DNA of 61,496 nt from Candidatus Cloacimonadota bacterium (GTDB lineage Bacteria; Cloacimonadota; Cloacimonadia; Cloacimonadales; WRIO01), in assembly GCA_009777575.1 (NCBI GenBank), contig WRLO01000010.1:1-61496 (forward strand), in the 5' to 3' direction. Under the pieces are notes generated by a model. That model was not told where the DNA came from, made no database searches, and saw only the letters and a list, made by a program, of their open reading frames with translations. The translations under genes were made by a program, and so were the position numbers. Below are positions 4,777-38,403 of this stretch, piece by piece (the first letter of the stretch is position 1; each line of letters opens with the position of its first letter).

Positions 4777-7056
4777 CTATATAAAATCCTCATCAAAGCT
4801 ATCCATCGGCAACATTGTCTCTGGCATGATTTCAAGAGCGTTTGTTGGTTTTTTGTTGGGAAGTTGAGCATGAGTTTTTCTTCTCTCATTGGGTAAATTA
4901 TGAGTTTTTCTAAAAGCTGTATTATTGCTCATATTACTGAATTTTCTACTAAGGGTGAAAGACTCAACCATATCTTTTAATTCGTCAGCTTGACTATTTA
5001 ATTCTTCCGCTGCAGAGGCAGATTCTTCGGCATTCGCTGCATTTTGTTGAGTTCCGCGGTTCATCTCATTTACACCAGTAGAAATTTGCCCAACACCAGA
5101 TGCTTGTTCGTCAGAAGAGGCAGAAATCTCATTTACAATGCTTTTCACTTTATTGAAATGTTCTTTCATTTCAATAAAAGATTTAGTGACTTGCTCGACT
5201 ATTTTTGCTCCCATTTCAGAATTTCGGCTCGATTCATCTATAAGAGCATTTGTGTTTTTAGCAGCTTCAGCACTTCTGAGAGCGAGATTTTTAACTTCTT
5301 CGGCAACAACTGCAAAACCTTTTCCAGCGTCACCAGCATGAGCGGCTTCTACGGCAGCATTCAAAGCGAGAAGGTTAGTTTGAAAAGCAATATCTTCTAT
5401 AGTTTTGATGATTTTTCCTGTTTCCTGTGATGATTTCAAGATAGCTTCCATAGCTTTATTCATTTTCTCCATTGATTCATTACTAGAATCAACAGATCGA
5501 ACAGCTTGATCTGCAAGTTTTAAACCCGCTTTAGCGTTATCGGCGTTGTTTGCGGTCAGAGAATTTATCTCTTCAAGAGAACTTGAAATCTCTTCGAGAG
5601 AGGAAGCCTGTTGCGAAGTAGAATTAGCGAGGTTTTGCGAGCCGGCTGTAATTTCGTTTGATGCAGAAGTTATTTGCTCAACAGCGAGTTCTACTTGCGT
5701 AATGGCTTCTTCCAGAGTATTGCCAGCATTATTAATATTTTGCATGAGAAAATCAAAATCGCCGGGATATTTATTAATAATGCGAGCAGTTAAATCTTTT
5801 TTAGAAAGTCTATCCATAACATCGAGGCATTCTTTCATAGGATAAGCAACAGATTCGAGGATGTTGTTCATACCATCGACCAGTTTTGCATAATCATTTT
5901 GATGTTTTTTCACATCAATCCGAGTTTTAAGTTTACCAGCAAAAGCTTCTTTGGTTAAATAATCACAATCAGATAAAACTCTTTGAATAGCATTTACCAT
6001 ATTTTGCATAGCTTTAGCTAAATCACCTAATTCGTCTTTTGATTTCACATTTATATTCAGATTTGTGTTGCCGTTTTCGATGTTACGGGCAATATCAAGG
6101 CATTCATGGATAGGTTTGGAAATCATTCTGGCAAAAGCTATAGCAACAATTACACCTAAAACAAGAAAAATAAAACCAATAACGAGTATTGTATTACGCA
6201 CCTGAGCCAGTTCAGAATTCATAACATCCTCGTCTAAAGTAAAGAAAAGTTTCCAAGGATAACCTGTGATTTCAGTATAAGCTGCAATGTATTTTTTCCC
6301 ATCTTCAGTAAATCTCGCATTCCCAGACCTTGAGTTTAGTGCAACAGATACCATATCAGCTTTTGAGCGATAGTCTGGATTATTTGCTGCCTCAGAAATT
6401 ACATTAACTTGATTAAAGACCATATCTCTGTCTGGATGAGCGACAATAGTGCCTGAGTTATTAATCATAAAAGCATAAGAACCTTCCATAGTTCTGGCAT
6501 TGTTTACCAAGTCAATAAGCGCAAGATTTCCGTCTCTGCGTGCTACAATCATGCCTATCACCCTAGCCCCAGGTCCATTATGAGACATAATAGGTGCAGC
6601 ATACATCAAAACGAGGCTGTTTGTAACTCGACTGATTATCAAATCAGAGACTGCGTTTCTGCCAGTCAAAGCTACTTGAACATAATCTCTATCACCCAGA
6701 TTTAAGTTTGCATCAGGAACTTCTGATATGTGCCTATATCTACCATCCGGAAACACCATCCCCATTTCTTGAGCACCAATACGCTGCACATCAGGAATCA
6801 GATTTTCCCGGATGACGCCTTCCCAGTCTAAAGTTCTAGATTCAGTCCTGTTTGCAATTTCAAAAAGCCTATTCAATTCTGCGTCTAGATTCGTTTTGAT
6901 TAAATCAGCATTTGAGGTTGCGATAATATCCAATTTATCGAGATATGTCTTTTCAAAATTGCGATTCAATATCATTTCCACAGGGATTACTATTCCTACA
7001 ATACACACAAATAAAGCAATCCCAAACAAAAGAGAGATTTTCATATTAAGTTTCAT
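4777..7056 (-). CDS. Methyl-accepting chemotaxis protein (TM1 - dCache-like periplasmic domain - TM2 - HAMP - MCP signalling domain).
   Basis: Two TM helices flank a ~250-aa periplasmic domain. Conserved MCP signalling hairpin ([36 protein letters not shown]) and Ser/Ala/Glu-rich methylation helices. Confidence 0.9.
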
Positions 7057-7157
7057 CTCTAAACATTCTCCATTTCTTTTCAGTTCATATTTAAAAATTA
7101 CACAGTTCGCCTATCTCAAATTAGAAAAGTATTTTCCCTAACTTGATAAAGGCTCGA

Positions 7158-7649
7158 TTACATATCTTGTATTTGCATCAATTCTTTATTGGTCAATATT
7201 TTACCAATATCCAATAAAGAGACTACTTTGTTTTTTACCTTTGCCATAGCGAGGATAAATTGCGTATCAAGATCTACTCCAAAGGAAGGGGAGCTTTCTA
7301 TCTCATTTTTATTGATGTCTATAACTTCATTTACTTTATCGACAATGACACCGATAAAAATTTCTCTTCCATCCAATTTCATTTTTATGATGATAACGCT
7401 GGTTCTGTCATCATAAACTTGCTCCTCAAGAAGAAACTTTAACCTCAGGTCAACTACAGGTATAATTCGACCTCTTAAATTAATTACACCTTTTACGAAA
7501 GCAGGGGTTTGAGGAATTTTCGTTATATCAGGAATTGCAATTATTTGAAGTATGCTCCCGACACTGACACCGTAAAATTCTTCCAATAGATTGAAAGTAA
7601 GATATTTACCTTCAAATTCTGCTGTATCTACACTCATATTATCCTCCAT
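7158..7649 (-). CDS. cheW: Chemotaxis coupling protein CheW.
   Basis: 163 aa. CheW-like domain (YGVSVGSILQIIAIPDITKIPQTPAFVKGVINLRGRIIPVVDLRLKF). Confidence 0.9.
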   Translation of the reverse strand: MEDNMSVDTAEFEGKYLTFNLLEEFYGVSVGSILQIIAIPDITKIPQTPAFVKGVINLRGRIIPVVDLRLKFLLEEQVYDDRTSVIIIKMKLDGREIFIGVIVDKVNEVIDINKNEIESSPSFGVDLDTQFILAMAKVKNKVVSLLDIGKILTNKELMQIQDM

Positions 7650-7863
7650 TTTTTAAATGTATATTTTCATAAGTGCCAATTATTTAAAAATGCTTTTTTT
7701 GTCAACAGTTTTAATCTTGTTAGGATAAAGATATTTAAAGTAAGTTATTTGATGTGAGAAGGAGTGAAAGCTCCTTTTTTTCATTATATGGTTATCATTC
7801 ATTATCGAAATGCGATCATTTTTGCGGTGGCAAAGAGAGAAATTCAAAAAATAAAAAAAATTG

Positions 7864-8075
7864 TTGACAAAAAAACTATATCAAATTTTCTCGTCTATAA
7901 CTTCTTTTTTTAACAAAGAGTTTTTCCTGTGGTAATTCTGCGAGCTATTTCACAAGCTCAATATCTCTTGAACCGAGAGCACACAGAGGTAGAGAACACA
8001 GAGAAATACGGAGTTTTTTGAAGTTACCCCCTTGGATTGTTCGACCCACTGGTCCCGGAAGCTCGATGATAGCCT
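7864..8075 (+). repeat. Copy of a mosaic intergenic repeat family in the cheW-kamD divergent region (5' leader of kamD). It carries CACAGAG direct repeats and a GTTCGACCC-containing module.
   Basis: Long stretches align to the reverse complement of 21341-21540 (TCTCG.CTATAACTTCTTTTTTTAACA, GAGAACACAGAGAA, TTTTGAAGTTACC, GGTTCGACCC.CTGGTC.CGG) and to the IR arm at 26358-26404 (GGTAATTCTGCGAGC...ATATCTCTTGAACCGA). Confidence 0.55.
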
Positions 8076-8189
8076 CCATCCACAATTTTATTTAGGGGTA
8101 GAGGTAATGCTATTCCTCGATAAAATAGCACGATAGGTAACATCCTCCTTTATAAAGGGATTAGAGAATAGATATATCAGGAGATAAAA

Positions 8190-9782
8190 ATGATAAAACT
8201 AACAATCAATCAAAAAAAAATAACAGAAGCAAGAGCTTATGCAAAGAAAATCACCAATGAAATTACATGGCTTTTTGAGGGATATAGCTCTGTGACCATA
8301 GAGAGAGCTGTATTAAGACTTCTCGGTGTAGATGGAGCTACCGCAGACGGGACACCTTACCCTAATGTGATAGTGGACTATTTAAAAGACAAAAAAATCA
8401 TTGATAAGGGAGCTGCTTATCATATTTGTAATGCAATGATTTATTTGTGTGATAGTGGGAATGTCGGATTACAAGGTAATTTTACAACTCAAGAAATTGC
8501 TGAGAAAATAATAAAAAACGAAATAAACCTATCAGAAATACCAGCTCAAGACCCAAAAAAAGTTTATGAATTAATGCAGTCTGAAACCAGTAAATCTTTG
8601 GAAAATATCACACAGCAAAAAGAATATAGAAACTGTCAATTTACCAAGTATGGAGAAAGAAAAAAGCCTTCTCTTTATGTGATTGTAGCCACAGGAAATA
8701 TTTATGACGATGTAGTCCAAGCAAAAGCAGCTGCTAAACAAGGTGCAGACATCATTGCTGTCATCCGGTCAACAGGACAATCATTACTCGATTATGTGCC
8801 TTATGGGGCTACTACAGAGGGGTTTGGTGGAACTTTTGCTACCCAAGAAAATTTCCGAATCATGCGAAAGGCACTTGATGAAGTAGGTGAAGAAATAGGT
8901 CGTTATATCTGTCTGACCAATTATGCTTCCGGTCTTTGTATGCCTGAAATAGCAGCAATGGGAGCAATGGAAAGACTCGATGTCATGCTTAACGATGCAA
9001 TGTATGGCATTTTATTCAGAGATATAAATCCACGAAGAACATTGTTAGACCAGTATTTTTCGAGAATGATAAACGGTTTTGCGGGTATTGAGATTCAGAC
9101 CGGTGAAGACAATTATTTGACCACTTCAGATGCAGTAGAAAAGGCATATACAGTGACAGCATCTCAATTGATAAATGAACAATTTGCGATTTTGTCAGGA
9201 GTGAAAGCAGAAAAAATGGGGATAGGACATGCTTTTGAAATAGACCCAGATATTGAAAATGGCTTTCTTTACGAAATAGCTCATGCAATGCTGACAAAAG
9301 AATTGTTTCCTAATTCACCGACTAAATACATGCCTCCAACAAAGTTTATCACTGGCAATATATTTAAGGCATATTTGATGAACGCCATGTTTAATTTTGT
9401 TGCTCAACTCACAGGACAAGGAGTGCAGCTACTCGGGATGCTCACTGAGGCTGTTCACACACCGCACCTTCAAGATAGGGCATTGGCTATCGAAAATGCA
9501 GAATATATTTTTAAAACAATGAAAGATTTGCCTAAAGAAATTTTCATAACTGAAGATGGCTTTATCAACCGAAGAGCAAATTTTGTTTTAGAACAAGCAA
9601 CTGACTTTCTAGCAAAAGTGTCCGAAAAAGGTCTTTTGACCTCTATGGCACAGGGAGAATTTGCAGATATAAAAAGACCAGAAGAAGCTGGTAAAGGTCT
9701 CGAAGGGGTGTTTAAAAAAGCAGAAGATTATGTCAATCCTTTTATGGAGAGGATGAAGATAGAACTGGCTACTAAGAAATAA
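8190..9782 (+). CDS. kamD: D-lysine 5,6-aminomutase alpha subunit.
   Basis: 530 aa. Long identical stretches to KamD as I remember it (LYVIVATGNIYDD..AKAAAKQGADIIAVIRSTGQSLLDYVPYGATTEGFGGTFATQENFR, LCMPEIAAMGAMERLDVMLNDAMYGILFRDIN, KYMPPTKFITGNIFK). Confidence 0.9.
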   Translation: MIKLTINQKKITEARAYAKKITNEITWLFEGYSSVTIERAVLRLLGVDGATADGTPYPNVIVDYLKDKKIIDKGAAYHICNAMIYLCDSGNVGLQGNFTTQEIAEKIIKNEINLSEIPAQDPKKVYELMQSETSKSLENITQQKEYRNCQFTKYGERKKPSLYVIVATGNIYDDVVQAKAAAKQGADIIAVIRSTGQSLLDYVPYGATTEGFGGTFATQENFRIMRKALDEVGEEIGRYICLTNYASGLCMPEIAAMGAMERLDVMLNDAMYGILFRDINPRRTLLDQYFSRMINGFAGIEIQTGEDNYLTTSDAVEKAYTVTASQLINEQFAILSGVKAEKMGIGHAFEIDPDIENGFLYEIAHAMLTKELFPNSPTKYMPPTKFITGNIFKAYLMNAMFNFVAQLTGQGVQLLGMLTEAVHTPHLQDRALAIENAEYIFKTMKDLPKEIFITEDGFINRRANFVLEQATDFLAKVSEKGLLTSMAQGEFADIKRPEEAGKGLEGVFKKAEDYVNPFMERMKIELATKK

Positions 9783-9956
9783 AAAGATTGATTTATTATC
9801 TACTAAAAAATTTAAACCCTTTTTGATAAATTATATAATTGTTGACAAAATTTAATGCTTTTTTTTTATGTAGGTTGAAGAGTTATAAATATAGGAAGTG
9901 TTGGCTGGGAGATGCTAATAATTGACAGATGATAATAAAAATAAAGGAGTGAGATA

Positions 9957-10994
9957 ATGACACAAAAACATTTGAACACTGCAAAGATTAACAAGGCTGA
10001 TGAGTTTTATACTCAGATGACTGATATCGATAAAGAGATGAAGTATTATAAGGCTTTATTTAAGAATCAAATTATTTTTTGTAATTGTGATGACCCTTAT
10101 GAAAGTAACTTTTTTAAATTTTTTGCTATGAGTTTCAATCATTTGGGGTTAAAAAAACTCATTGCAACTTGTTATGATGGTTCACCAATTGCTAGTACCC
10201 AATTGACATTGTTTGATTATGAACCACCTGAAAATAAAACTACTAAAAACGCTCACAAAATAGTAATGGAAGAACTGACAGATGAAAATCATGATGGTGC
10301 CACTGGATTAGCAGATGTAGAACTAATCCTCAGAAACAAAAAAAATGTGTTAACAAGATTAAAAGGCAATGGCGATTTTCGCTCGCAGGAATGTATAGAA
10401 TTACTGAAAGAAACCGATATAGTAATAACCAATCCTCCTTTTTCATTGCTCAGAGAGTATATAGCACAGCTGATAGAATATGATAAAAGATTTATCATAA
10501 TCGGAAATATAAACGCAGTAAGTTACAAAGAAATTTTCAAACTGATAAAAGAAAATAAATTATGGCTCGGGGAGAGCATTACTAGCGGTGATAGAGAATT
10601 TAAGGTTCCAGATTATTATCCCCTTGATGCAGCAACTACACGGATTGATGAAAACGGTAATAAATATATCCGTGTAAAAGGTGTTCGTTGGTTCACAAAT
10701 ATTGATGTTCCTAGAAGACATGAAAAACTTTATTCATACAAAAAATATACACCTGAGGAGTTTCCACAATATGATAATTTTAACGCTATTGAGGTGTCAA
10801 AAGTTGTAGATATTCCAATAGATTGGGATGGAATTATGGGAGTACCAATATCGTTCTTAGATAAATATAACCCAGAGCAATTTAAAATCGTAGGAAATGA
10901 AGAAACTCTAAATATTCCTAAAGGTAGATGCTATATAAATGGTAAAAGATTATATGCAAGAATTTTTATCAAAAGACTAGGAGATATTAAATGA
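9957..10994 (+). CDS. N6-adenine DNA methyltransferase of the EcoRI-methylase-like family.
   Basis: N-terminal DEFYTQ, NCDDPY..NFFKFFA, catalytic ITNPPFSLLREY (NPPF motif IV). Good RBS. Stop overlaps the next gene's start (ATGA). Confidence 0.7.
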   Translation: MTQKHLNTAKINKADEFYTQMTDIDKEMKYYKALFKNQIIFCNCDDPYESNFFKFFAMSFNHLGLKKLIATCYDGSPIASTQLTLFDYEPPENKTTKNAHKIVMEELTDENHDGATGLADVELILRNKKNVLTRLKGNGDFRSQECIELLKETDIVITNPPFSLLREYIAQLIEYDKRFIIIGNINAVSYKEIFKLIKENKLWLGESITSGDREFKVPDYYPLDAATTRIDENGNKYIRVKGVRWFTNIDVPRRHEKLYSYKKYTPEEFPQYDNFNAIEVSKVVDIPIDWDGIMGVPISFLDKYNPEQFKIVGNEETLNIPKGRCYINGKRLYARIFIKRLGDIK

Positions 10995-12073
10995 AAATAG
11001 AGTTAAAAGAAATATCAATCAGAGAGGTTGCTTTAGGATACATTGATGACAAAGAAGAAGGTGTATTAGGGTATGAGCGAAGATTAAACATCCGTCCTAA
11101 ATATCAAAGAGAATTTGTATATGATGACAAGAAAAGGGATGCAGTGATAGATACCATCGTAAAAGGTTTTCCTTTAAATGTGATGTATTGGATAGTCAAT
11201 GAAGATGGCACTTATGAGGTTTTAGACGGGCAACAAAGAACTATCAGTTTTTGTCAATATATCAATGGTGATTTTCAAGTGGATAATTTACGATTTTATA
11301 ATATGACTGATATAGAACAATCGCAAATCCTCGATTATAAACTCATGATTTACTTCTGCGAGGGCAATGACAAAGAAAAACTCGATTGGTTTCGAATAAT
11401 TAATATTGCTGGCGAGAGACTTTATGAACAGGAACTCCGAAATGCAGTTTACACAGGTCCTTGGCTTTCAGAAGCAAAAATAATTTTTAGCAAAACTGGT
11501 TGTTCAGCATATAAATTAGCACAAAACTATGTCACCGGCTCCCCCATTCGTCAAGACTATCTCGAAACCGCAATAAAATGGATAAACAAAGGTCAGATTG
11601 AGGAATATATGTCTATTCATCAACATGATCCCAATGCGAATGAGCTTTGGACATATTTTCAGAATGTGATAAACTGGGTAAAACTGACTTTTCCAAAATA
11701 CCGCTCAGAAATGAAAGGTCTCGACTGGGATGGTCTATATGATGAACATCATAAAAAGTTATTCGACACAGCAAAGCTCGAAAAAGAGATAGAAAACCTG
11801 ATGGTAGATGACGATGTAACAAATAAAAAAGGGATTTACAGTTATGTCCTCAATCGAAAAGAAAAACATCTCAATATCAGAGCCTTTACTGAGAGCCAGA
11901 GAAGGCAAACCTTTGAGAGACAAAATGGAGTCTGTTCTAAATGTCAGAAAACCTTTGAAATAAAACAAATGGAAGCTGATCATATAACACCTTGGAGCAA
12001 AGGAGGGAAAACGGTTGTGGAAAACTGTCAGATGCTATGTAAGGAATGTAATAGAAGGAAGAGTGGGGTGTGA
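10991..12073 (+). CDS. DUF262 (ParB/GmrS-like, DGQQR motif) fused to a C-terminal HNH endonuclease.
   Basis: IRPKYQREFVYD and LDGQQRT motifs in the N-terminal half. C-terminal CSKCQ...ADHITPWSKGG...NCQMLCKECNRRK HNH zinc-finger nuclease motif. Translationally coupled to the upstream MTase. Confidence 0.8.
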   Translation: MKIELKEISIREVALGYIDDKEEGVLGYERRLNIRPKYQREFVYDDKKRDAVIDTIVKGFPLNVMYWIVNEDGTYEVLDGQQRTISFCQYINGDFQVDNLRFYNMTDIEQSQILDYKLMIYFCEGNDKEKLDWFRIINIAGERLYEQELRNAVYTGPWLSEAKIIFSKTGCSAYKLAQNYVTGSPIRQDYLETAIKWINKGQIEEYMSIHQHDPNANELWTYFQNVINWVKLTFPKYRSEMKGLDWDGLYDEHHKKLFDTAKLEKEIENLMVDDDVTNKKGIYSYVLNRKEKHLNIRAFTESQRRQTFERQNGVCSKCQKTFEIKQMEADHITPWSKGGKTVVENCQMLCKECNRRKSGV

Positions 12074-12189
12074 AATACAGTAAGGGAAACATTTACCCAT
12101 TTAACATTAATATTATTATCTTTGATGCAATGAAGGTATGAAAAAGATTATCATTTTAAAATGAATTTTAATTAATTATTTAAGATAGA

Positions 12190-12495
12190 GGAATATTTTG
12201 TACGACCACTAGAGCAAATTATATCGAGATTTTACGCCGTTTTAAACAAGAATATGGTGAAAAATAAGGTATTATAAGTATTGGATTATTTGGGTCTGTA
12301 GCACGAGATGAGCATACAGAAGAAAGTGATGTAGATGTTTTGGTAGAAGCGCCAACGATGAGTATATTCACTTGTATGGATATCGCAGAAAAGTTGGAAG
12401 AAATGATGGGTGTAAAAGTGGATATAGCTACAAAATCTAAATTTAAGCGTCCTCGATTTAAGGCAAGAATTGAAAAGGAGGTGGTTTATGTATGA
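12190..12495 (+). pseudogene. Nucleotidyltransferase (MNT/MntA-like antitoxin) gene with an in-frame TAA nonsense codon and no clear start.
   Basis: Frame reads ...EILRRFKQEYGEK*GIISIGLFGSVARDEHTEESDVDVLVE..., with the stop at 12265-12267 falling where a Tyr is expected (GEKYG). GS-x-ARDE..SDxD polymerase-beta-fold signature. Confidence 0.55.
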
Positions 12496-12600
12496 TAAAA
12501 CATTGGTTATTGACCATTTGATATTGATAAAAAACTTAGTTTCGTTATAAAAAGGCAGGTAGAATAGCTTTTGAATCAACTTTATAGGAGTTGTAGTTAT

Positions 12601-12894
12601 ATGGATAATAAGATTCCAGAAAATTATCAAAAAGACATCGAAGTTGCGGTAGATTTTCTTAAAAGCGAGGGTTGCGAAGCAGTTTATCTATTTGGATCAT
12701 TATTAACTGGAAATATTCACGAAAGATCAGACATTGACTTAGGAATTAAAGGGTTACCTCCTAAAAAATTCTTTCGAGTATACGCAAAACTTGATGATAG
12801 AGTAATAAATGAGATTGATCTAGTTGATTTTGATGAACAGTCAAAATTTTATGATTTATTGTGTTCACTTGGAGAGGTAATAAAACTTGGATAA
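12601..12894 (+). CDS. Nucleotidyltransferase-domain (MNT-like) protein, apparently an orphan antitoxin-like component.
   Basis: VYLFGSLLTGNIHERSDIDLGI signature. AGGAG RBS 9 nt upstream of the ATG at 12601. The downstream HEPN-like partner is reduced to a 36-codon fragment (12887-12997). Confidence 0.55.
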   Translation: MDNKIPENYQKDIEVAVDFLKSEGCEAVYLFGSLLTGNIHERSDIDLGIKGLPPKKFFRVYAKLDDRVINEIDLVDFDEQSKFYDLLCSLGEVIKLG

Positions 12895-13078
12895 AACTAT
12901 AGGGAAAAAAATATTATTCGAAATCGAACAGCTTGATGAACTAATGGAAAAATCAAGACCTTTTTTATCTATCTGTCTCGAAAGAGAACCAAACTAAAGA
13001 GGGCAAGGTAGCTGTAGATGTTTTGTTTAAGGATACAAGCGTTTGGTTAAATCAAGAATATAAAATTAGGAGAATATA

Positions 13079-13708
13079 ATGCCAATAAACAAAAATAGTT
13101 TAATAAAATGTTTAATTGAAATGAAAAAGATTTATTTAAAAGACCCTATAGGTTCAGTTCGTAGCCAAGGTTTTATAAATTTCTTACACGAATATTGTAT
13201 TGATGAGCTACAAAAGGTAGGCATAAATGAAAATCATTTTCAGATACTAAAAGAAGCTACTTTATACGGTTCTCACAAATCCAAAGATGTAGATGTAGCA
13301 GTCATTGAAAACATAAACGGTCCACAAATCATTGTAGGTATCCGTAGCCAAATGTCTTCAATAAGTAAGAATATTTTAACATACTATGAAGAAATAATAG
13401 GAGATTGCATTTCCTTGCACGACAGGTTTCCCATGGCAGTTTTGTGTTATATCTATTTGCTACCTAAAAAGCCTATCAAAACAGGAGTAACTGAAAAGGT
13501 TAATCTTGAAAGAGCTGAAAAGCTATATATGAGAATAACTGGTAGAGAAGATTGGAGGTCTCCAAAGGATAAATATGAACATTTTGCTTTTTTGAAAGTA
13601 GATTTCGAAACAGACCCTCCCACCATTTTGGAAACTGACCCTTTATTGTGTATTGAGCATTTTTTTGACAAAATAGTTCATACTTACAATGAAAGGAAAC
13701 CATTATAA
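13079..13708 (+). CDS. Hypothetical protein. Candidate restriction endonuclease partner of the overlapping downstream MTase.
   Basis: 209-aa ORF with strong RBS. 20-bp overlap with the following gamma-class MTase. Possible PD-(D/E)xK-like DVDVAVIEN...GIRSQ segment (weak). Confidence 0.35.
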   Translation: MPINKNSLIKCLIEMKKIYLKDPIGSVRSQGFINFLHEYCIDELQKVGINENHFQILKEATLYGSHKSKDVDVAVIENINGPQIIVGIRSQMSSISKNILTYYEEIIGDCISLHDRFPMAVLCYIYLLPKKPIKTGVTEKVNLERAEKLYMRITGREDWRSPKDKYEHFAFLKVDFETDPPTILETDPLLCIEHFFDKIVHTYNERKPL

Positions 13709-15437
13709 GGAAAGAATTAGTATGTCTCCACATAAGCAAAAGCAAACAGGGTCATTTTATACTGAAAGTGTAGTAGTAGAAAGTATGATAAAATGGGCAA
13801 TCAGAGAAGGTAAAGAAAGTGTTTTAGAACCATCATTTGGAGAAGGCATTTTTATCGAAAAGTCTTTGAATCGCTTTAATGAATTAGGCAATGATAATCC
13901 TAAGCTTGTGGCTATAGAGATACAACCTGAAGTCGCAGATAGTTTCAGAAATAAAGAGAAATTGGAAACATCTTATGTTATAAACAGTGATTTTTTGGCT
14001 TTTCATTCTGATGAAAAATTTGATGTTGTGATAGGCAATCCGCCTTATGTCTGCCTTAAAAACATTTCATCGGAACAAAGATATACAGCTCAAAAAGTCA
14101 TTGAACAGTATTTAACTAGATGCCCAAACAATGGCAGCTTATGGTTTCCATTTGTTTTAAAATCTATTTCGTTATTAAAGCCAGAAGGTCGCATGGCTTT
14201 TGTCTTGCCTTTTGAGATAACTTATACACGATATGCTTATGCTTTGTGGGAGACCTTATCACAAAACTTTTCAAGCCTGTCTATCAGTCGTATATATGAA
14301 GACTTTTTCCCAAATGTCGATGTTGAAACTATTATTTTTTACGCAGCAGGTAAAAATGGGACAACCGACTTTATAGATTACAATATTTATAATGGGGTAG
14401 AGGATTTACAAAATAACAATATAAATAAAAAAGAAATTATCTGTTTGTCAGAAATATTCAACAATGAAAAGCCCTTTATATCTAGGACACTTGACAAAAC
14501 ACAACAGAAACAATTGATCAATATAAAAAACAAAGGTTTTTTGAAACCCATAATAGATAGCTGTAAATTTAAAATAGGTTATGTGTCTGCTGATAAAAAC
14601 TATTTTCATCCACAATCAAACATTATTCGTCATTTTTCAATTCCAGATGAAAATTTGATACCTACGATTTTAAATGCTAAAGAAATAAATGGAGGATCAA
14701 ACATAGGCTTGGAAGTACTTAAAGGAGATTGTTCTTCAAAGCTATACTGTCCTAAAAATATTTCAGAAGGTGATAGGTTATACTTAGAAAATGGAAAAAT
14801 GATGCAAGTTCATAAAAAATATAAATGCAAGAATCGCAAACCATGGTATATTACTCCCAACATTGAGTATCCAGACATGATATTAACCGTTTTTGGTGAA
14901 GTGCCTAAACTTATTGCCAATAAAGGAGGATATGCTGTTTCAAACAGTCTCTTGTGTGGCAGTTTGAAAGGCATTTCAAAAGAGCAATTTATCTGTAGAT
15001 GGTATAACAGCCTTACTTTATTATCTTTGGAGCTGAATATCCATTCTTTGGGTGGAGGAACTTTGGTTATCATACCGGGTGAAGCTGATAGGTTAAATAT
15101 CGTTGAAAATATTCCTCGCAGTATTGTTAGCTCAATATATGAGAAATTGAATGAAGAAACTCAAAAAAACGGAATCGAATACACTTATGCTTTAGGTGAT
15201 AAAATAGTCTTACAAGACATTTTTGGAGTTACTGATGAAGAATTGAAGTATATTCATGAATCAATAAAACTTCTTCGTAGCTGGAGAAACCCTATAAATA
15301 GAAGAAAAGATTGTTTAAAAAAGAATGTTTTTAACACAATAGAAAATAAAGATTTCTTTGCTCAGAAAAAGAAAAATGATATATTAAATAAACATCGTAT
15401 AACACACCTCTCCCAAATAGAGGTAAACAAATATTAG
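13689..15437 (+). CDS. Gamma-class N6-adenine DNA methyltransferase (type II, TaqI/Eco57I-like arrangement).
   Basis: GSFYTE (motif X-like), LEPSFGEGIF (motif I, FxGxG), VIGNPPYV (motif IV NPPY). Long C-terminal target-recognition region. Confidence 0.8.
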   Translation: MKGNHYKERISMSPHKQKQTGSFYTESVVVESMIKWAIREGKESVLEPSFGEGIFIEKSLNRFNELGNDNPKLVAIEIQPEVADSFRNKEKLETSYVINSDFLAFHSDEKFDVVIGNPPYVCLKNISSEQRYTAQKVIEQYLTRCPNNGSLWFPFVLKSISLLKPEGRMAFVLPFEITYTRYAYALWETLSQNFSSLSISRIYEDFFPNVDVETIIFYAAGKNGTTDFIDYNIYNGVEDLQNNNINKKEIICLSEIFNNEKPFISRTLDKTQQKQLINIKNKGFLKPIIDSCKFKIGYVSADKNYFHPQSNIIRHFSIPDENLIPTILNAKEINGGSNIGLEVLKGDCSSKLYCPKNISEGDRLYLENGKMMQVHKKYKCKNRKPWYITPNIEYPDMILTVFGEVPKLIANKGGYAVSNSLLCGSLKGISKEQFICRWYNSLTLLSLELNIHSLGGGTLVIIPGEADRLNIVENIPRSIVSSIYEKLNEETQKNGIEYTYALGDKIVLQDIFGVTDEELKYIHESIKLLRSWRNPINRRKDCLKKNVFNTIENKDFFAQKKKNDILNKHRITHLSQIEVNKY

Positions 15438-15446
15438 GAGAATAAA

Positions 15447-16193
15447 ATGTCATTTATTATAGACCATACAAGAGTCAAACCCTACGGGGATACATTAAAC
15501 GATGGTAGGATACAGCTGTCATTTTCTATGCCAGTTACCTGTGATGAAAAAGGAAAAGAAGCGGCAAAAATTTTGCTAAAATCTATGGGTTTTGAAAACA
15601 TAGAGATTTGTTTTTTGAAAGAATTACATGAAGGTTTTACGCAGTTTATAGCCTACGGAAACACTTCTGTCACTGTAGATACCACCAAAATCATAGTCAA
15701 TGTAGTAGAAACAGAAGTTATGACTATGGATGAAACAGACGATTTTATCGAAAAAAACATAGGTCGGAAAATAACTGTCATAGGTGCTTGTATAGAGACT
15801 GATGCACATACTGTGGGCATCGATGCTATCATGAATATGAAAGGCTACAATCATCGATACGGATTGGAAAGATATAAATATTTCAATGCAATAAATCTTG
15901 GTGCTCAAATACCTTCGGAAGAACTGCTTAAAAGAGCAAGAGAGTTCAATGCTGATGTGATTTTAGTCTCTCAAATAGTTACTCAAAAAGATATTCATGT
16001 CAAAAACCTTACTAGACTAATAGAACTTGCAGAAGCAGAAAGATTGAGAGATAAAATGCTTTTCATCTGCGGTGGTCCAAGACTAAATCACGAACTCGCT
16101 ATCGAACTTGGCTATGATGCAGGTTTTGGAGCAGGAAGTTATGCTACTAATGTGGCGAGTTATATTGCTGTAGAGATGGAGAAAAGGAAGTGA
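15447..16193 (+). CDS. kamE: D-lysine 5,6-aminomutase beta subunit (B12-binding).
   Basis: 248 aa. RVKPYGDTLNDGRIQLSF..., GRKITVIGACIETDAHTVGIDAIMNMKGY..., GGPRLNHELAIELGYDAGFG match KamE as I remember it. Begins 10 bp after the MTase stop with its own RBS. Confidence 0.9.
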   Translation: MSFIIDHTRVKPYGDTLNDGRIQLSFSMPVTCDEKGKEAAKILLKSMGFENIEICFLKELHEGFTQFIAYGNTSVTVDTTKIIVNVVETEVMTMDETDDFIEKNIGRKITVIGACIETDAHTVGIDAIMNMKGYNHRYGLERYKYFNAINLGAQIPSEELLKRAREFNADVILVSQIVTQKDIHVKNLTRLIELAEAERLRDKMLFICGGPRLNHELAIELGYDAGFGAGSYATNVASYIAVEMEKRK

Positions 16194-16313
16194 TAATATA
16201 TAAAAATATGTCGAAAATAGTCTTAAACACAGAGATTTTAGAAAAGGCACAGAGAGTTGCTCTGAGGCTATTTTCGCTCAAGACTGTCGGATTTGGTTTT
16301 AAGGATTGTTAAT

Positions 16314-17099
16314 ATGTTACTTTTTGATGAGTTTGTAAATATAGTAAATAAACTAAGAGACCCCGAAAAAGGCTGTCCTTGGGACATCAAACAGACTTCA
16401 AAGTCTTTGATACCCAATTTTATAGAAGAAGTATATGAGGCAGTCGAAGCCATCGAAGAAAGCGATGACACACTTTTGCTAGAAGAGCTTGGTGACATTT
16501 TACTACATGTCATGTTACAGGCAAAAATAGCAGAAGAAAAAGGAGTATTTACTCTTGATGATGTTTTGAAAAGTATCAATAATAAATTGATCAGAAGACA
16601 TCCTCATGTCTTTGCAGATTTAGAAATAGAAACTTCAGACCAAGCAAAACTCAACTGGGAAAGGATAAAACTTCAAGAAAAGAAAAAAGAGAGAAAATCT
16701 GTTCTGGAGGGTGTGCCGAAAAATTTGCCAGCTTTGATTCAAGCTCAAAGAATACAAGAAAAAGCTGCCTCTGTTGGCTTTGATTGGGATTCTATTGAGC
16801 CTATATTTGAGAAGATAAAAGAAGAGATTGATGAGGTGAAAGCGGAGATAGATCCACCTCTCCCCCACCTTGCAAAGAGGGGTAATTTAGAAATGGAAAT
16901 AGGAGATCTATTTTTTGCAGTAGTTAACCTTTCGAGAAAACTAAAAATAGACTCAGAATCGGCACTTAGACTGAGTAATGAAAAGTTTAAAACAAGGTTC
17001 AATAAAGTAGAAAAACTCTGTGAAGAGAAACAACTCAATATGCTGGAAATGGATTTGAAAGCGCTTGACGAACTTTGGGATATCGTTAAAAAGGATTGA
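16314..17099 (+). CDS. mazG: MazG-family nucleoside triphosphate pyrophosphohydrolase.
   Basis: Tandem MazG domains (EEVYEAVEAIEE.., LEELGDILLHVML; second EEIDEVKAEI..IGDLFFAVVNL). ATG at 16314 is preferred over the upstream TTG at 16293. Confidence 0.85.
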   Translation: MLLFDEFVNIVNKLRDPEKGCPWDIKQTSKSLIPNFIEEVYEAVEAIEESDDTLLLEELGDILLHVMLQAKIAEEKGVFTLDDVLKSINNKLIRRHPHVFADLEIETSDQAKLNWERIKLQEKKKERKSVLEGVPKNLPALIQAQRIQEKAASVGFDWDSIEPIFEKIKEEIDEVKAEIDPPLPHLAKRGNLEMEIGDLFFAVVNLSRKLKIDSESALRLSNEKFKTRFNKVEKLCEEKQLNMLEMDLKALDELWDIVKKD

Positions 17100-22858: not shown

Positions 22859-25534
22859 TCATACTATATTCTCCAAAGTTTTCTGGACAGTAGCATCAGA
22901 CACATTTATCTTCGTTCCATATCTAATTCTGCGAAGTAAATGCAATTCAACACAAGCAAGTAATTTCTGATCATAAACCTCATCGTTCAGCTCGTATTTA
23001 ATAAGCCTTTCTATTTGATTAAATACATTTTTAACGATGGAAGAATCTGCACTATCAGGTTTAAAATTCTTTACAAATATTCTTCTGGCTATTTCTCTAC
23101 CTAAAATTCTTTTATCGTATTCACATCCATCTACACAAAAGCGACAATAACCACATTCAGGATAAGGTCGCAGTTTATCTTTACGGTTATTCCAGTATGT
23201 AGAAAGTGACTTTATACTTTCATCAGAAAGGGTGATACTAATATTTTGAGCGAGTCTATAGTCTTCTGTTTTTATCTCTTCAGGTTCATCAAGCTTTCCA
23301 AAAAATAAAAAGGCTTCACCCGGTTTTAGTTTAGCAAGTCTTTTCTCTTGAATTTCCGTCATATTTGAACTATTGGCTATCATCTCTTTATCCGTGCCTT
23401 CTACAAGCCTAAAAGTGACTTTTATATCCGTCAATGACACAACATCAGTCGAGACTTTTCTCGGTGATTGGTCAGCAATGACTATACCTACTCCATAAGA
23501 GCGAATCTCAGCAAGCATGCGTTTTACTAGTCCTTGAGCTATTGCAGCTGGGTTTGCTTCACCTTCACCAGCATTGGAATCAGCATCAAGCAAAACATGG
23601 GCTTCTTCAAGTAAAATCACATTTTTAAGATTACCTTCACCAAGATAATTACTATTCACATAAGCCAAAATAGATAATAAAAGTAAAGATATTATCAATG
23701 CTTTTTGGTCGCTATTCTCAATAGCAGCAAGCTCAATAACAGTAGGTTTGGTTAATAAATCTTCTATCGGAATAGAATGATAATTATCAAACAAATTTAC
23801 AAGGCTTTGCAACCTTACTAACCCTGCTCTTCCAATATTTTTTGCATCTCCTGTATATCCTATTGCCTCAAAGGTTTCTTCAAAGCATTTAATGAAATCC
23901 GTGATATTAAAAACTTTTCCTTTATTATCGCTGGTATATGTGTCCAACCAACGAAAATCAGAATAACAATTATTGACAGTTTCTTCAAAGATCTTATCAA
24001 GAGGTGATGACATCGCCACACCAGCAGCAAAGGCTGTTTTTAATGTGTTTTTATAGGTCTCAAGTTTTACATTCTTGGGTGGCACAAAAGGATTAAACAC
24101 GAACGGGGATATAAAGTTTTTTCCCGGTGTAAACACCTGCAAGTCTGGAATACTCTGTACCAAAGCTCGATACTCATTTTTTGCTGGTTCAATCACGAGA
24201 AATGGTATTTTATGGTCTTTCCACAGCCTATCAAGCAAACTTACAGAAAATGTAGTTTTACCAGAGCCAGGCGTTCCCACCACAAGCATATGCTTAGTAA
24301 GGTCTTTCAAGGAAATGCCGATAGTATCACCTTGAGAAGATGATTTTAGCCTACCAAGCATGATGTCTCCACCACCAACCACATTATCAGCATAAGTCCG
24401 ACTTATTTTTCCTGATTCGTTCACTACCAGACCAGCATATACTGTGTCACTGCCAATAGGAAGCCTGAAAAATTCTGACGCTTCTTCAGCAGTGATGATA
24501 TAAGGCAATTTATAAAAATCATTTAAATTTTGCCCTACATTCCAAACAGATGGATTTCTATCGGTGGCAAGTAATAATTCGTGAACTGCCCAAGGAAGTG
24601 GGTAGAAGTTGTCGTCTTTCCTTACATCGTTTGGTTGCAATGATGTTATTCTTAGTTCATTACTATTGTTTAATTGAGCCAAAATTCTAGTGGCGATGGC
24701 ATTTGTTTCGCTTTGAGAACCATAAACAAGAATATTAAAGGCAAAAGCAGCTGTGTTCTTTTTCTGAGAATAATATTTATAAGTTTCTGCATGTTTTTCT
24801 GCGAGAGCAAAGCTGATATTACCAACACCATGTTCCATGACACCTTTGGATAGAGTTCCCAGCATTTGAGCATTTCTGTCTATAGCTGAGGCTTCTAGTG
24901 GTGAATAAATGACAGGCATCAACTGAAATGAAACAGCACAATTTGGAAAATCTATAAGCGAACTTACAATACGACTGAGGTCGTTTTCTGTCTCAGCAAT
25001 TTTACTAAAAGCAAAACAATATGGAATCATATTATTTTGTAAGTTCTCAAGATGTTCGCTTTTGACCACTGCTTTTATAGATTGATTATTTGTATTTTTT
25101 ATTTTCGCTATTAAATTATTGATGTCTGCATCTTTATATTCAAATTTACCAAAATCAAGGGTGGATTTGCATACCCTCAAAACAGAGGAAATAGTATTCT
25201 CTATTTCTGCATTATTATTCCCGATTGCTCTGATGATTATATGTAAAGTGATAGCGGCTTTATAGGGTTGGTTCTTCACTTCCTGAGTTGACCATAAGAT
25301 TTCTAGCGATATATCCTGGCTTCCCCCCACATAAATGTGGGGAGGACTTAATTTATAATTCTGATATACCTCCGACAGCAAGCGTGCCATATCCTGCTTG
25401 TACTCGGTATCAATGTTGTCAACTGTAGTAAATCTCTTTTGTAAGATAGACAAGTGCGGTATGCTGGTTATTTCGATTGCACAAAGACCTACATATTCAC
25501 CGTTTGATAATTCGACTATAGAAATATTATTCAT
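22859..25534 (-). CDS. HerA/FtsK-superfamily (DUF87-like) ATPase with a ~380-aa N-terminal extension and a C-terminal Cys cluster.
   Basis: Walker A MLVVGTPGSGKTT, HerA-like IEPAKNEYRAL (DPxGEY-like), Walker B LLEEAHVLL, VIADQSPRKVSTDV. C-terminal CGYCRFCVDGC. Confidence 0.75.
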   Translation of the reverse strand: MNNISIVELSNGEYVGLCAIEITSIPHLSILQKRFTTVDNIDTEYKQDMARLLSEVYQNYKLSPPHIYVGGSQDISLEILWSTQEVKNQPYKAAITLHIIIRAIGNNNAEIENTISSVLRVCKSTLDFGKFEYKDADINNLIAKIKNTNNQSIKAVVKSEHLENLQNNMIPYCFAFSKIAETENDLSRIVSSLIDFPNCAVSFQLMPVIYSPLEASAIDRNAQMLGTLSKGVMEHGVGNISFALAEKHAETYKYYSQKKNTAAFAFNILVYGSQSETNAIATRILAQLNNSNELRITSLQPNDVRKDDNFYPLPWAVHELLLATDRNPSVWNVGQNLNDFYKLPYIITAEEASEFFRLPIGSDTVYAGLVVNESGKISRTYADNVVGGGDIMLGRLKSSSQGDTIGISLKDLTKHMLVVGTPGSGKTTFSVSLLDRLWKDHKIPFLVIEPAKNEYRALVQSIPDLQVFTPGKNFISPFVFNPFVPPKNVKLETYKNTLKTAFAAGVAMSSPLDKIFEETVNNCYSDFRWLDTYTSDNKGKVFNITDFIKCFEETFEAIGYTGDAKNIGRAGLVRLQSLVNLFDNYHSIPIEDLLTKPTVIELAAIENSDQKALIISLLLLSILAYVNSNYLGEGNLKNVILLEEAHVLLDADSNAGEGEANPAAIAQGLVKRMLAEIRSYGVGIVIADQSPRKVSTDVVSLTDIKVTFRLVEGTDKEMIANSSNMTEIQEKRLAKLKPGEAFLFFGKLDEPEEIKTEDYRLAQNISITLSDESIKSLSTYWNNRKDKLRPYPECGYCRFCVDGCEYDKRILGREIARRIFVKNFKPDSADSSIVKNVFNQIERLIKYELNDEVYDQKLLACVELHLLRRIRYGTKINVSDATVQKTLENIV

Positions 25535-25943
25535 TTCCTACCTTCATAAGTAAATCCACAAATGATTCTGGTAAACTCACATTATTCATTTTTATTGCCT
25601 CTTTAAAAAGAGGAGCAATTTCCTCATCTTTAAAACCTGCAATGCCGCAACCTATGCGAGTTACATAAAAAAATAACTCTTGATGTTCTTTAGCAAAATC
25701 CAAAAAATCATTTACATAAGGAATTATACTATCTACTCCTCCTTGCATAGTGGGAATAGCATAACTCTGACCTTGTAATCCGACACCTTGACCATAAATC
25801 GCTCCGAATTTTTCATGAGCAGTTTGAGCCGCTCCACCAGCGTGTTGACCTGCAAGATTACTCCCAAAAACAAAAACTTCATTGGGAGCTAAGGAGCTTA
25901 TTTTTTCGGGTGTTATTAATTTTTTATTCGTTATTATTGTCAT
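25527..25943 (-). CDS. Small Gly-rich Rossmann-like protein translationally coupled to the HerA-like ATPase. Family uncertain (SLOG/LOG/DprA-like at best).
   Basis: 138 aa. VFVFGSNLAGQHAGGAAQTAHEKFGAIYGQGVGLQG. 8-bp overlap with the downstream ATPase gene. Confidence 0.45.
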   Translation of the reverse strand: MTIITNKKLITPEKISSLAPNEVFVFGSNLAGQHAGGAAQTAHEKFGAIYGQGVGLQGQSYAIPTMQGGVDSIIPYVNDFLDFAKEHQELFFYVTRIGCGIAGFKDEEIAPLFKEAIKMNNVSLPESFVDLLMKVGNE

Positions 25944-26003
25944 TTTATTATCCTCAATTTTTATTGTATCTCATTTGAGTCCACTCCGAAAAGTATATTT
26001 TCA

Positions 26004-26436
26004 TAAAATCATACCTTACACACACCGAAGTGTCGGTTCAAGAGATAAGAGGCTATGCCGAATAGCTCGCAGAATTACCTCATGAGAATATCATGCAACC
26101 AACAACATCCACCCCTAAGGGGTGGAACTCTAAAAAGTATATTTGTATAAAATCATACCTTACGCACGCCGAAGGTGTGTGACTCTTTATAGAAAAACGG
26201 CAACCAACAACATCCACCCCTAAGGGGTGGAACTCTAAAAAGTATATTTGTATAAAATCATACCTTACGCACGCCGAAGGTGTGTGACTCTTTATAGAAA
26301 AACGGCAACCAACAACATCCACCCCTAAGGGGTGGAACTCTATGTAGTACAACAATGAGGTAATTCTGCGAGCCATTCGGCATAGCCTCATATCTCTTGA
26401 ACCGATCTCTCCAAGATGTGTAAGGAATATCAATAA
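26004..26436. repeat. Composite foldback repeat element: nested inverted repeats (~47 bp, 2 mismatches) enclosing a tandemly duplicated core.
   Basis: Outer ends ATACCTTACACA / TGTGTAAGGAAT. Inner IR 26028-26081 versus 26358-26404 (CGGTTCAAGAGATAAGAGGCTATGCCGAATAGCTCGCAGAATTACCTC and its reverse complement). Confidence 0.6.
26096..26341 (+). repeat. Tandem duplication of a 105-bp unit (2.3 copies). It superficially resembles a CRISPR array but is not one.
   Basis: 36-mer CAACCAACAACATCCACCCCTAAGGGGTGGAACTCT at 26096, 26201 and 26306. The two intervening 69-bp segments are identical to each other (AAAAAGTATATTTGTATAAAATCATACCTTACGCACGCCGAAGGTGTGTGACTCTTTATAGAAAAACGG). Confidence 0.85.
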
Positions 26437-26558
26437 ATAACTAAAAATCGACTTTTCGGAGAGGACTCCAAATGGAGCATGGTTTGATTTTGAAGAGGGA
26501 TTCTCTTCAATCAGTTTATTTGCACTGTATTCCTTATTCTCTAAATCTGATACTTTCA

Positions 26559-35387: not shown

Positions 35388-35399
35388 ATTTCTAACTCC

Positions 35400-37862: not shown

Positions 37863-38403
37863 TTCCTAATGTTATAATTTTATTAAGCCTTTGTTGTATT
37901 TCATTTGTAAGTTCATTTTTCAAGATTTCGAGTATCACGCTTAGTAATATTTCTTTGAAATCAGTTATTTCTGTGAACTTTAACTTTAGGGTATCTGAGG
38001 GGATGTTTTCAAAAAAAACATTGATAGTACTCTCGCTATCATCACAAATCTTGAAACCAGCTATAATTATAGGGAAACCTTCAACTTGCTGTTTTTTTAG
38101 ATTTTTAGCATATTCATATTCTTCAAAGGTATATTTTCCCATTTTTTTACCTATTAAGAGTAAAAAAATATTACAATCATCTATTTCTGTTAAAAATTGT
38201 TCTTGTTTTCTTCCATTTGTAATAGCTTTATCAGAAAATTCACAGATAAACATATTGATCATGATGTTATGGTCTATAACAACATTTTTTATTTGTCGGA
38301 TAAAATTTTTTAGTGATTGACGCTCATCTGCAAACTCCTCTATTGAGGAAGCGAGGAAGATTTTTATGTTTATCTTCGGTTTCGTGAAAATGTTTGCTGA
38401 CAT
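37837..38403 (-). CDS. Stand-alone DUF4062-like domain protein.
   Basis: KIFLASSIEEFADERQSLKNFI...CNIFLLLIGKKMGKYTFEEYEYA fits the DUF4062 pattern (FISSxFxDLxxER...CDIxxxIIGxRYG). 26-bp overlap with the downstream gene. Confidence 0.55.
   Translation of the reverse strand: MSANIFTKPKINIKIFLASSIEEFADERQSLKNFIRQIKNVVIDHNIMINMFICEFSDKAITNGRKQEQFLTEIDDCNIFLLLIGKKMGKYTFEEYEYAKNLKKQQVEGFPIIIAGFKICDDSESTINVFFENIPSDTLKLKFTEITDFKEILLSVILEILKNELTNEIQQRLNKIITLGNERTNEKN

Follow-up and report, generated by a model that had tools for sequence, protein, structure and literature searches.

How do the genes for the two subunits of one enzyme come to lie 5,664 nt apart with both of them intact, and what fills the space between them? 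The question is raised by contig WRLO01000010.1 of the Candidatus Cloacimonadota bacterium assembly GCA_009777575.1, analyzed here over its whole length of 61,496 nt (the window), in which kamD and kamE, encoding the alpha and beta subunits of lysine 5,6-aminomutase, are separated by restriction-modification (R-M) and toxin-antitoxin genes. From comparison of the sequences, the most probable explanation, to which we assign a probability of about 0.78, is that this 5.66-kb stretch represents a defence island, composite in make-up and acquired horizontally, that lies between the kamD stop codon and the Shine-Dalgarno sequence of kamE. A first-pass annotation of the window had proposed such an R-M and toxin-antitoxin accessory island, and the absence of an island from this position in related contigs (L088, L183, L084, L086 and L090) bore the proposal out. 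Its gene assignments were likewise all verified by Pfam, PADLOC and pairwise comparison (Table 1).

Two intact aminomutase genes and their insert

Both aminomutase genes were full-length by Pfam, confirming a pair split by an insert, and all island genes ran on the + strand in the same direction as kamD and kamE. KamD possessed the alpha TIM-barrel domain, and KamE the dimerisation and B12-binding domains, with the DxHxxG motif of the latter kept as DAHTVG in the translation. Compared with the sister contig L088, KamD was 85% and KamE 88% identical, and for both genes the ratio of nonsynonymous to synonymous divergence (dN/dS) was ~0.05 against L088 and L086, with dS saturated; a ratio this low indicates that kamD and kamE are under constraint. 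As both genes are intact, the aminomutase is probably still made despite the split. For annotation, the lesson is that a split kamD/kamE pair does not equate to loss of the lysine-fermentation pathway.

Table 1. Features of the kamD-kamE interval and its flanks. Positions are those of the window; ORF, open reading frame.
Feature	Position	Strand	Evidence or remark
kamD, lysine 5,6-aminomutase alpha subunit, intact	8190..9782	+	Pfam PF09043 Lys-AminoMut_A, E 2e-245
Left junction spacer, kamD stop to M1, 174 nt	9783..9956	+	nothing equivalent in the spacers of relatives (10-109 nt)
M1, EcoRI-family N6-adenine DNA methyltransferase, NPPF motif, full length	9957..10994	+	EcoRI_methylase PF13651, E 3e-137, profile positions 2-339 of 345
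R1, DUF262(GmrSD_N)-HNH nuclease, putative restriction partner of M1	10991..12073	+	PF03235 and PF01844
MNT1 pseudogene, nucleotidyltransferase antitoxin, in-frame TAA at 12265-12267	about 12193..12495	+	stop-masked translation against PF01909, positions 1-93 of 93, E 4e-18
20-codon ORF that overlaps the stop of MNT1 and occupies the place of its partner HepT/HEPN toxin	12488..12550	+	sequence and position only
MNT2, Polbeta-type nucleotidyltransferase, open frame	12571..12894	+	PF18765, 1e-11; likely start 12601, giving 97 aa
HepT2 remnant, 37 codons	12884..12997	+	colinear with the N-terminus of the intact 152-aa HepT-like_2 toxin of L178; rest deleted
R2, 209-aa Type II restriction-endonuclease candidate	13079..13708	+	PADLOC REase_II, 7e-17; PD-(D/E)XK fold in model
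M2, gamma-class (TaqI/Eco57I-like) N6-adenine methyltransferase	13722 (or 13689)..15437	+	PF07669, PF22837, PF02384 (N6_Mtase)
kamE Shine-Dalgarno AGGAG, right edge of insertion	15436..15440	+	overlaps M2 stop TAG (15435-15437) by 2 nt
kamE, lysine 5,6-aminomutase beta subunit, intact	15447..16193	+	PF16554 (OAM_dimer) and PF02310 (B12-binding)

The empty site in related genomes

To establish a base rate for adjacency, we listed 160 kamD loci from KamD scans of GTDB genomes and JGI metagenomes, 155 of which had enough downstream sequence. In 151 of these 155 informative loci the distance from kamD to kamE was no more than 300 nt (median spacer 40 nt), supporting the earlier statement that the two genes are normally neighbours. 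The exceptions were a Bacteroidales locus in which a 188-aa ORF of unknown function separates the two genes (L054:3999-4823), and three Bacteroidales-type loci (L025, L080 and L140) that had kamD and no detectable kamE in the 2.5-10 kb downstream. No match exceeded 70% identity among those listed from these scans; close relatives were retrieved by exact-protein look-ups, and the record names of related contigs, as we read them, point to termite hindgut as the source of the window. Together with the window the close relatives formed one clade in a tree of KamD and KamE (100% bootstrap), within which the window and L088, a contig from the window's own sample, were sisters (100% bootstrap).

Comparison with these related kamDE loci defined the empty site. 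In the sister L088 the two genes were separated by 109 nt without an island, in L084 by 38 nt, and in L086 and L090-L092 by 10 nt (TAA-AGGAG-N5-ATG), while in L183 they overlapped by 16 nt. In L086 and L090 the AGGAG stood directly after the kamD stop, showing that the sequence at this spacing is native and that kamE in the window has kept its own Shine-Dalgarno, as had been claimed. That kamE closely follows the methyltransferase stop also held, with the distance from TAG to ATG corrected from 10 to 9 nt. At the other edge, the last residues of KamD in the window (…MERMKIELATKK) were still similar to the native tail of its relatives (…IELGLV). Since the native KamD tail (…IEL…) and the native kamE AGGAG are both kept, the insert would fill a former spacer of a few tens of nt at most. 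No similarity beyond shuffle level was found between the left junction spacer and the L088 spacer.

The window sequence was also present in JGI sample 3300002469 and ENA assembly ERZ27257348, made with different assemblers, where JGI contig L082 was 100% identical across both junctions and ENA contigs L081 and L083 each spanned one. An artefact of assembly or binning, in which an island was wrongly joined in between truly adjacent kamD and kamE genes, is therefore hardly credible: although the window is a metagenome-assembled contig and the ENA assembly breaks inside M1/R1, the same junctions recur in three assemblies with one contig crossing both, an independent sample (L178/L179) holds a split locus of the same kind, and the ENA break is explained by a second allele starting at ~10,540.

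No terminator-like site was found on the + strand between 9783 and 15446, and an Rfam scan of 7000-17000 returned no riboswitch or other RNA family. Given the uniform gene direction and the lack of a terminator-like site from kamD to kamE, the island probably shares its transcription with kamDE, either within that unit or alongside it, and co-transcription with kamD and kamE is plausible; translation of kamE would then begin at the gene's own ribosome-binding site, immediately behind the M2 stop. Transcripts of kamE may come from read-through out of kamD or from island promoters, the latter being the source that the first-pass annotation had thought probable. One promoter-like match fell in the left junction spacer (9811-9839), in an overall count not above chance.

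Two probable restriction-modification cassettes

The island appears to consist of self-contained modules, each also found alone in unrelated genomes: an EcoRI-family methyltransferase whose translation would be coupled to that of a DUF262-HNH nuclease; two toxin-antitoxin units of the MNT/HepT kind (type VII), now without their toxins; and a TaqI-like gamma methyltransferase paired with a PD-(D/E)XK restriction enzyme. Both R-M cassettes look intact, and would methylate host DNA and cut unmethylated incoming DNA.

In the first cassette M1 matched PADLOC MTase_II PDLC03297 over its full length (4e-123), and R1, whose gene overlaps that of M1 by 4 nt, matched PADLOC REase_II PDLC03418, a REBASE-derived Type II profile, also over its full length (1e-135). 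Methyltransferase-then-nuclease pairs with the same short overlap were found on plasmids of Aeromonas, Mammaliicoccus, Macrococcoides, Sulfitobacter, Chryseobacterium, Dietzia, Variovorax and others, spanning Proteobacteria, Firmicutes, Actinobacteria and Bacteroidota, at 49-61% nuclease identity. The cassette thus combines a methyltransferase of known family with an adjoining nuclease that matches a restriction-endonuclease profile, in conserved linkage, as expected of Type II R-M genes. The identification of a DUF262-HNH nuclease in the first-pass annotation was therefore correct, and on the strength of PDLC03418 and the conserved pairing it can be refined from a stray nuclease to the most likely restriction partner of M1. 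In the plasmid pairs of Aeromonas caviae p1 (NZ_CP068231) and Mammaliicoccus sciuri pH8C110P-cfr (NZ_CP065796), gene order, the overlap of a few nt and domains were as in the window, with nucleases 57-60% identical; the plasmid pairs adjoin integrase, recombinase or insertion sequence (IS) genes, whereas the window copy is chromosomal, sits in a metabolic operon and has no such neighbour. No published specificity was found among members of the group combining an EcoRI-family methyltransferase with a DUF262-HNH nuclease, our literature search found no characterised DUF262-HNH Type II enzyme, and PDB sequence searches with M1 and R2 gave nothing useful.

Alternatively, the first cassette might not be a classical R-M system, with R1 acting as a modification-dependent Type IV (GmrSD/BrxU-like) nuclease and M1 as an independent or orphan methylase. 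The N-terminal domain of R1 does match GmrSD_N, modified DNA is the substrate of the characterised DUF262 nucleases (GmrSD, BrxU and SspE; PMC12707154), and R1 had weaker PADLOC matches to NsnA and PD-T4-2_A. We consider this unlikely, as the Type II restriction-endonuclease model was by far the best match and covered the full length (1e-135 versus 1e-24), the C-terminal nuclease is a classical HNH domain (PF01844) and not the DUF1524 domain of GmrSD, and the pairing with its 4-nt overlap is kept across phyla. In addition, ENA contig L081 had the C-terminal half of M1 and the nuclease replaced together, as expected for a pair with matched specificity. This contig, from the window's sample, was 100% identical to the window up to ~10,540 and beyond that fell abruptly to ~65% identity through the C-terminal half of M1 and R1 (window 10540-11600 against L081:11440-12524). 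L081 would represent either a second population allele of the first cassette or a join of two genomes sharing the 5' half; the divergence may accordingly record a within-population swap of the specificity-determining part of the cassette, or an assembly join.

In the second cassette, R2 matched no Pfam or NCBIfam family, and its fold neighbours among solved Type IIP enzymes (NgoMIV, PspGI, BstEII and BbvCI) share only 7-11% sequence identity with it. It adjoins M2, has a predicted restriction-enzyme fold and keeps its linkage across genomes. M2 matched PADLOC MTase_II PDLC03267 (5e-85) and M.TaqI (7e-9), and contained the S-adenosylmethionine (AdoMet)-binding motif and the catalytic (D/N)PP(Y/F) motif of Type II methyltransferases, with FGEG (motif I) before NPPY and the target-recognition domain C-terminal. 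In an alignment of C termini the conserved core of M2 ended at WRNPxxRR near 15300; the last ~44 codons were a lineage-specific tail, different in every genome, that ran into the kamE ribosome-binding site. Homologues of R2 were numerous in termite-gut data, and the R2-then-M2 pair was also present in a Termitinemataceae and an Oscillospiraceae genome, the latter from the same sample as the window, in unrelated neighbourhoods without mobility genes (R2 74-75% and M2 54-61% identical to the window). The cassettes are thus common to Cloacimonadota, Spirochaetota and Clostridia of termite-gut metagenomes at 54-80% protein identity, a distribution suggesting that phyla in the termite gut exchange defence genes from one shared pool.

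Across the window (1-61496) GATC was strongly depleted, with 83 sites observed against 226 expected under a Markov model; GTAC, ACGT, GGCC and CTAG were also depleted, and GAATTC was only mildly low (8 versus 17.7). Such depletion suggests past or present restriction pressure on these sites. As a guide to the specificities of the cassettes palindrome avoidance failed, since no depleted site could be tied to either of them.

Toxin-antitoxin relics

Between the two cassettes lie the remains of two MNT/HepT modules. Type VII modules of this kind consist of an antitoxin gene followed by an overlapping HEPN-type toxin gene, as in the intact version in L178, whose toxin matched PF20797 (2e-23); those in the window differ in having toxins cut to 20 and 37 codons and one antitoxin with a premature stop. 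The reduction of the toxin genes together with the premature stop argues that the window modules are relics. No intact HEPN/HepT toxin gene was found in the island, only these two remnants, neither with a Pfam match. The shorter, which is too short for such a match, may be a toxin remnant given its place after MNT1. The longer aligned with the L178 toxin by pairwise BLASTP (E 6e-5, residues 1-36 against 1-36). MNT2 was 53% identical to the MNT of L178 and scored 40.7 bits against NCBIfam MntA, below the curated cut-off of 60. The earlier description of two decayed HEPN/MNT modules therefore stands for both toxin halves and for MNT1, and fails for MNT2, which is still an open frame. A short frame at 13000-13065 (…EGKVAVDVLFKDTSVWLNQEYK…), in the interval between the HepT stub and R2, had no Pfam support; we take it to resemble a RhuM-type N-terminus, and it may be another gene fragment.

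Junctions and route of arrival

The ribosome-binding contexts of R2 and kamE had been described as nearly identical and as a possible mark of the recombination junction. The likeness was real (20 of 23 positions), and both 16-mers were present, though located at 13066-13081 and 15434-15449 and not at 13063 and 15431. If insertion of R2 and M2 had duplicated the ribosome-binding region of kamE as a target site, these near-identical 16- to 23-mers would be the junction: the 20/23 match (13062-13084 against 15430-15452) exactly brackets R2-M2, exact matches to the 16-mer pattern occur in the window only at these two sites, and allowing up to 2 mismatches gives 4 matches where shuffles predict 0.41. 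Shuffles are, however, the wrong null for ribosome-binding sites, since an unrelated pair of gene starts also reached 20/23 among the 990 pairs in the window. The left copy holds the R2 start codon and conserved second codon, both part of the cassette itself, the homologous R gene in an Oscillospiraceae genome has nearly the same AGGAGAATA...ATGCC context, and in L178 the R2 and kamE contexts are not alike. A target duplication is thus very improbable; the unrelated gene-start pair, the Oscillospiraceae context and the native kamE AGGAG largely refute it, and the likeness does not mark a junction.

Integrases or att-like repeats, which the first-pass annotation had raised as possible companions of the island, were sought without success in the scanned window ORFs and flanks. 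Pfam identified no integrase or transposase domain in the island or among 38 window ORFs, several larger ORFs outside the island not having been submitted. No tRNA was found in the window, no significant repeat flanked the island (the sole bracketing repeat being the chance-level ribosome-binding-site likeness), and the window held no direct repeat of >30 bp around the insert of the kind left by a Nobusato/Furuta-type target duplication. In the scanned ORFs and window the island thus lacks the classical marks of an integrative island, namely an integrase or transposase and a tRNA or transfer-messenger RNA target with att-like repeats. We postulate that it most likely arrived by recombination without a dedicated mobility gene, in more than one step.

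History of the kamD/kamE junction

A condition that could have refuted an acquired island, namely that kamD and kamE are separated elsewhere in the lineage, was found in part. In L178/L179, from another termite-gut sample and not the sister lineage (KamD 76% and KamE 80% identical to the window), the pair is split by a related island, whereas the sister L088 and others are unsplit. The order in L178 was kamD, MNT, an intact HepT (152 aa), a 70-aa histidine-kinase fragment, R2, M2, an extra N6_N4 methyltransferase and kamE, with R2 80% and M2 62% (61.7%) identical to the window copies.

Repeats accompany the L178 locus. Its intact MNT-HepT module lies between the copies of a direct repeat (L178:1984-2011 and 2806-2833), 28 nt long (27/28) and corresponding to the kamD 3' end, which looks like insertion of a toxin-antitoxin module with target duplication; the repeat is just under the >30 bp threshold for long target duplication used in PMC2853133. 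Were the second copy taken as the original end, kamD would finish …MERMKKI* with its TGA overlapping the next ATG. A pair of 97-nt inverted repeats, 86% complementary (L178:39-135 and 7616-7712), brackets the block of kamD, island, kamE and glyoxalase, and shares a GATTGCTTCGT…-type core with repeats in L093; these are probably a dispersed element resembling a miniature inverted-repeat transposable element (MITE) or a repetitive extragenic palindrome (REP).

L093, the closest KamE relative (92%), presents a further arrangement. In L093:1-463 (and in L094) kamE has a tRNA-Lys(CTT) 39 nt upstream, which in turn follows inverted copies of a short repeat. A lysine tRNA beside a lysine-fermentation gene may be coincidence. 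The nearest kamD (L175:126-1598, 77% DNA identity to the window) is on a partial contig matching L093 that ends inside the gene, before the junction; it has an in-frame TGA at a Gly conserved in relatives (GVQLL*MLTEAV), which could be a pseudogene, a sequencing error or recoding.

Several observations weigh against a horizontally acquired island, or at least against our confidence in it. The assemblies that support the junctions all derive from reads of one sample, which limits their independence. The G+C content of the island (31.9%) and of the window (32.7%) gave no compositional signal of foreign origin, and promoter-like matches numbered 43 against 38.9 expected from shuffled sequence, with a consensus that may not fit the phylum. 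In L093, the closest relative by KamE, no kamD was found within the 463 nt upstream of kamE. Synonymous sites were saturated even against the sister, so dating by dN/dS fails and yields neither the timing nor the number of events. Lastly, L178 shares the MNT-HepT-R2-M2 order, and its R2 is 80% identical to that of the window compared with 74-77% for copies from other phyla; part of the island could therefore be old and have been lost from other lineages.

Taken furthest, this last point would imply that a core of MNT-HepT-R2-M2 entered the spacer in the common ancestor of the termite-gut clade and was lost from the L088, L183, L084/L086 and L090 lineages, with M1/R1 and a second MNT/HepT added in the lineage of the window. 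The same module order at the same junction in L178 would fit such a history, as would the similar dN between the window and L178 for R2 (0.137), kamD (0.161) and kamE (0.146), and the last 24 residues of KamD before the junction, which differ at 1 position between the window and L178 and at 4 between the window and its sister L088. It would, however, need at least two to three independent clean deletions, each restoring a 10-109 nt spacer and a working kamE ribosome-binding site, and in the 109-nt spacer of L088 no deletion scar was found above shuffle level. The left and right junctions differ between L178 and the window, R2 identities across four genomes (window, L178, Termitinemataceae and Oscillospiraceae) are nearly star-like at 74-80%, and the identity of M2 to the L178 copy (61.7%) hardly exceeds that to the spirochaete copy (60.8%). 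This pattern in R2 and M2 speaks for independent gains, or for intense turnover at a single site, rather than for simple inheritance, and we regard an old island as possible but rather unlikely.

A single recent insertion is also too simple an account, given the split locus in L178 and the tRNA-Lys upstream of kamE in L093; the junction is either a recurrent insertion site or the seat of an old island with continuing turnover. In the first case, the kamD/kamE spacer might be favoured for both landing and exchange of defence modules in termite-gut Cloacimonadota, a suggestion we offer tentatively and with no more confidence than the old island. A position between the subunit genes of a central fermentation enzyme could give modules free transcription and protection from loss, since a deletion that was not exact would ruin one of the two genes, kamD or kamE. 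The site would then have been colonised separately in the window and in L178, with the tRNA-Lys/repeat state of L093 and the allele swap in L081 as further products. Should the junction prove a recurrent target, it would illustrate how an essential operon can shelter defence genes. Within our preferred reading of a composite, acquired island, the L178 island and the 65%-identical allele in L081 suggest a site at which defence modules are acquired, exchanged and degraded.

Neighbouring genes and the rest of the window

In the window's clade kamDE had no other lysine-fermentation genes nearby, with CheW/MCP upstream and MazG downstream (window 7650-8189 and 16194-17099; L084, L086 and L090). In these three relatives a HEAT-repeat protein gene (~1300-1345 aa) stood between kamE and MazG; the window lacked it. 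The rest of the window was rich in defence-like genes (22859-28259, 33795-38403, 44153-45280 and 53721-57200), encoding a DUF87/HerA-type ATPase, a Schlafen/AlbA_2-HATPase_c_4 protein, a TIR-LRR protein and a second TIR protein, a DUF4062 and TPR pair, and a 1159-aa Tubulin_2-domain protein adjoining a 1781-aa ORF without assignment.

Comparison with known systems

R-M units have been described as mobile elements without a recombinase of their own, inserted at translation start and stop sites and into operon-like structures (Furuta, Abe & Kobayashi 2010, PMC2853133). The kamD/kamE island resembles those cases in its Type II R-M units without a linked integrase or transposase, its boundary at a stop and a start with intact flanking genes, its insertion inside an operon-like pair, which is explicitly reported there, and the allelic substitution of R-M genes at one locus, which the L081 variant matches. 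It differs from the cases in PMC2853133 in having no long target duplication around either cassette, in stacking two R-M units with toxin-antitoxin remnants where a single unit was described, and in its host, an uncultured member of Cloacimonadota.

The locus also resembles defence islands and hotspots, with unrelated defence modules clustered at one site and content that varies between lineages and within a population. The hotspots on record are mostly found at tRNA genes or flanked by conserved core genes, and many of them include genes of mobile elements. Here the site is instead a 10-40 nt spacer inside the operon of a two-subunit enzyme. The locus is a well-documented instance of an already known process, and understanding of these systems is unchanged by it; what it shows, with a defined empty site, is recombinase-free R-M cassettes stacking in a metabolic operon without breaking it, and linked toxin-antitoxin modules whose toxin halves decay next to restriction systems that remain intact.

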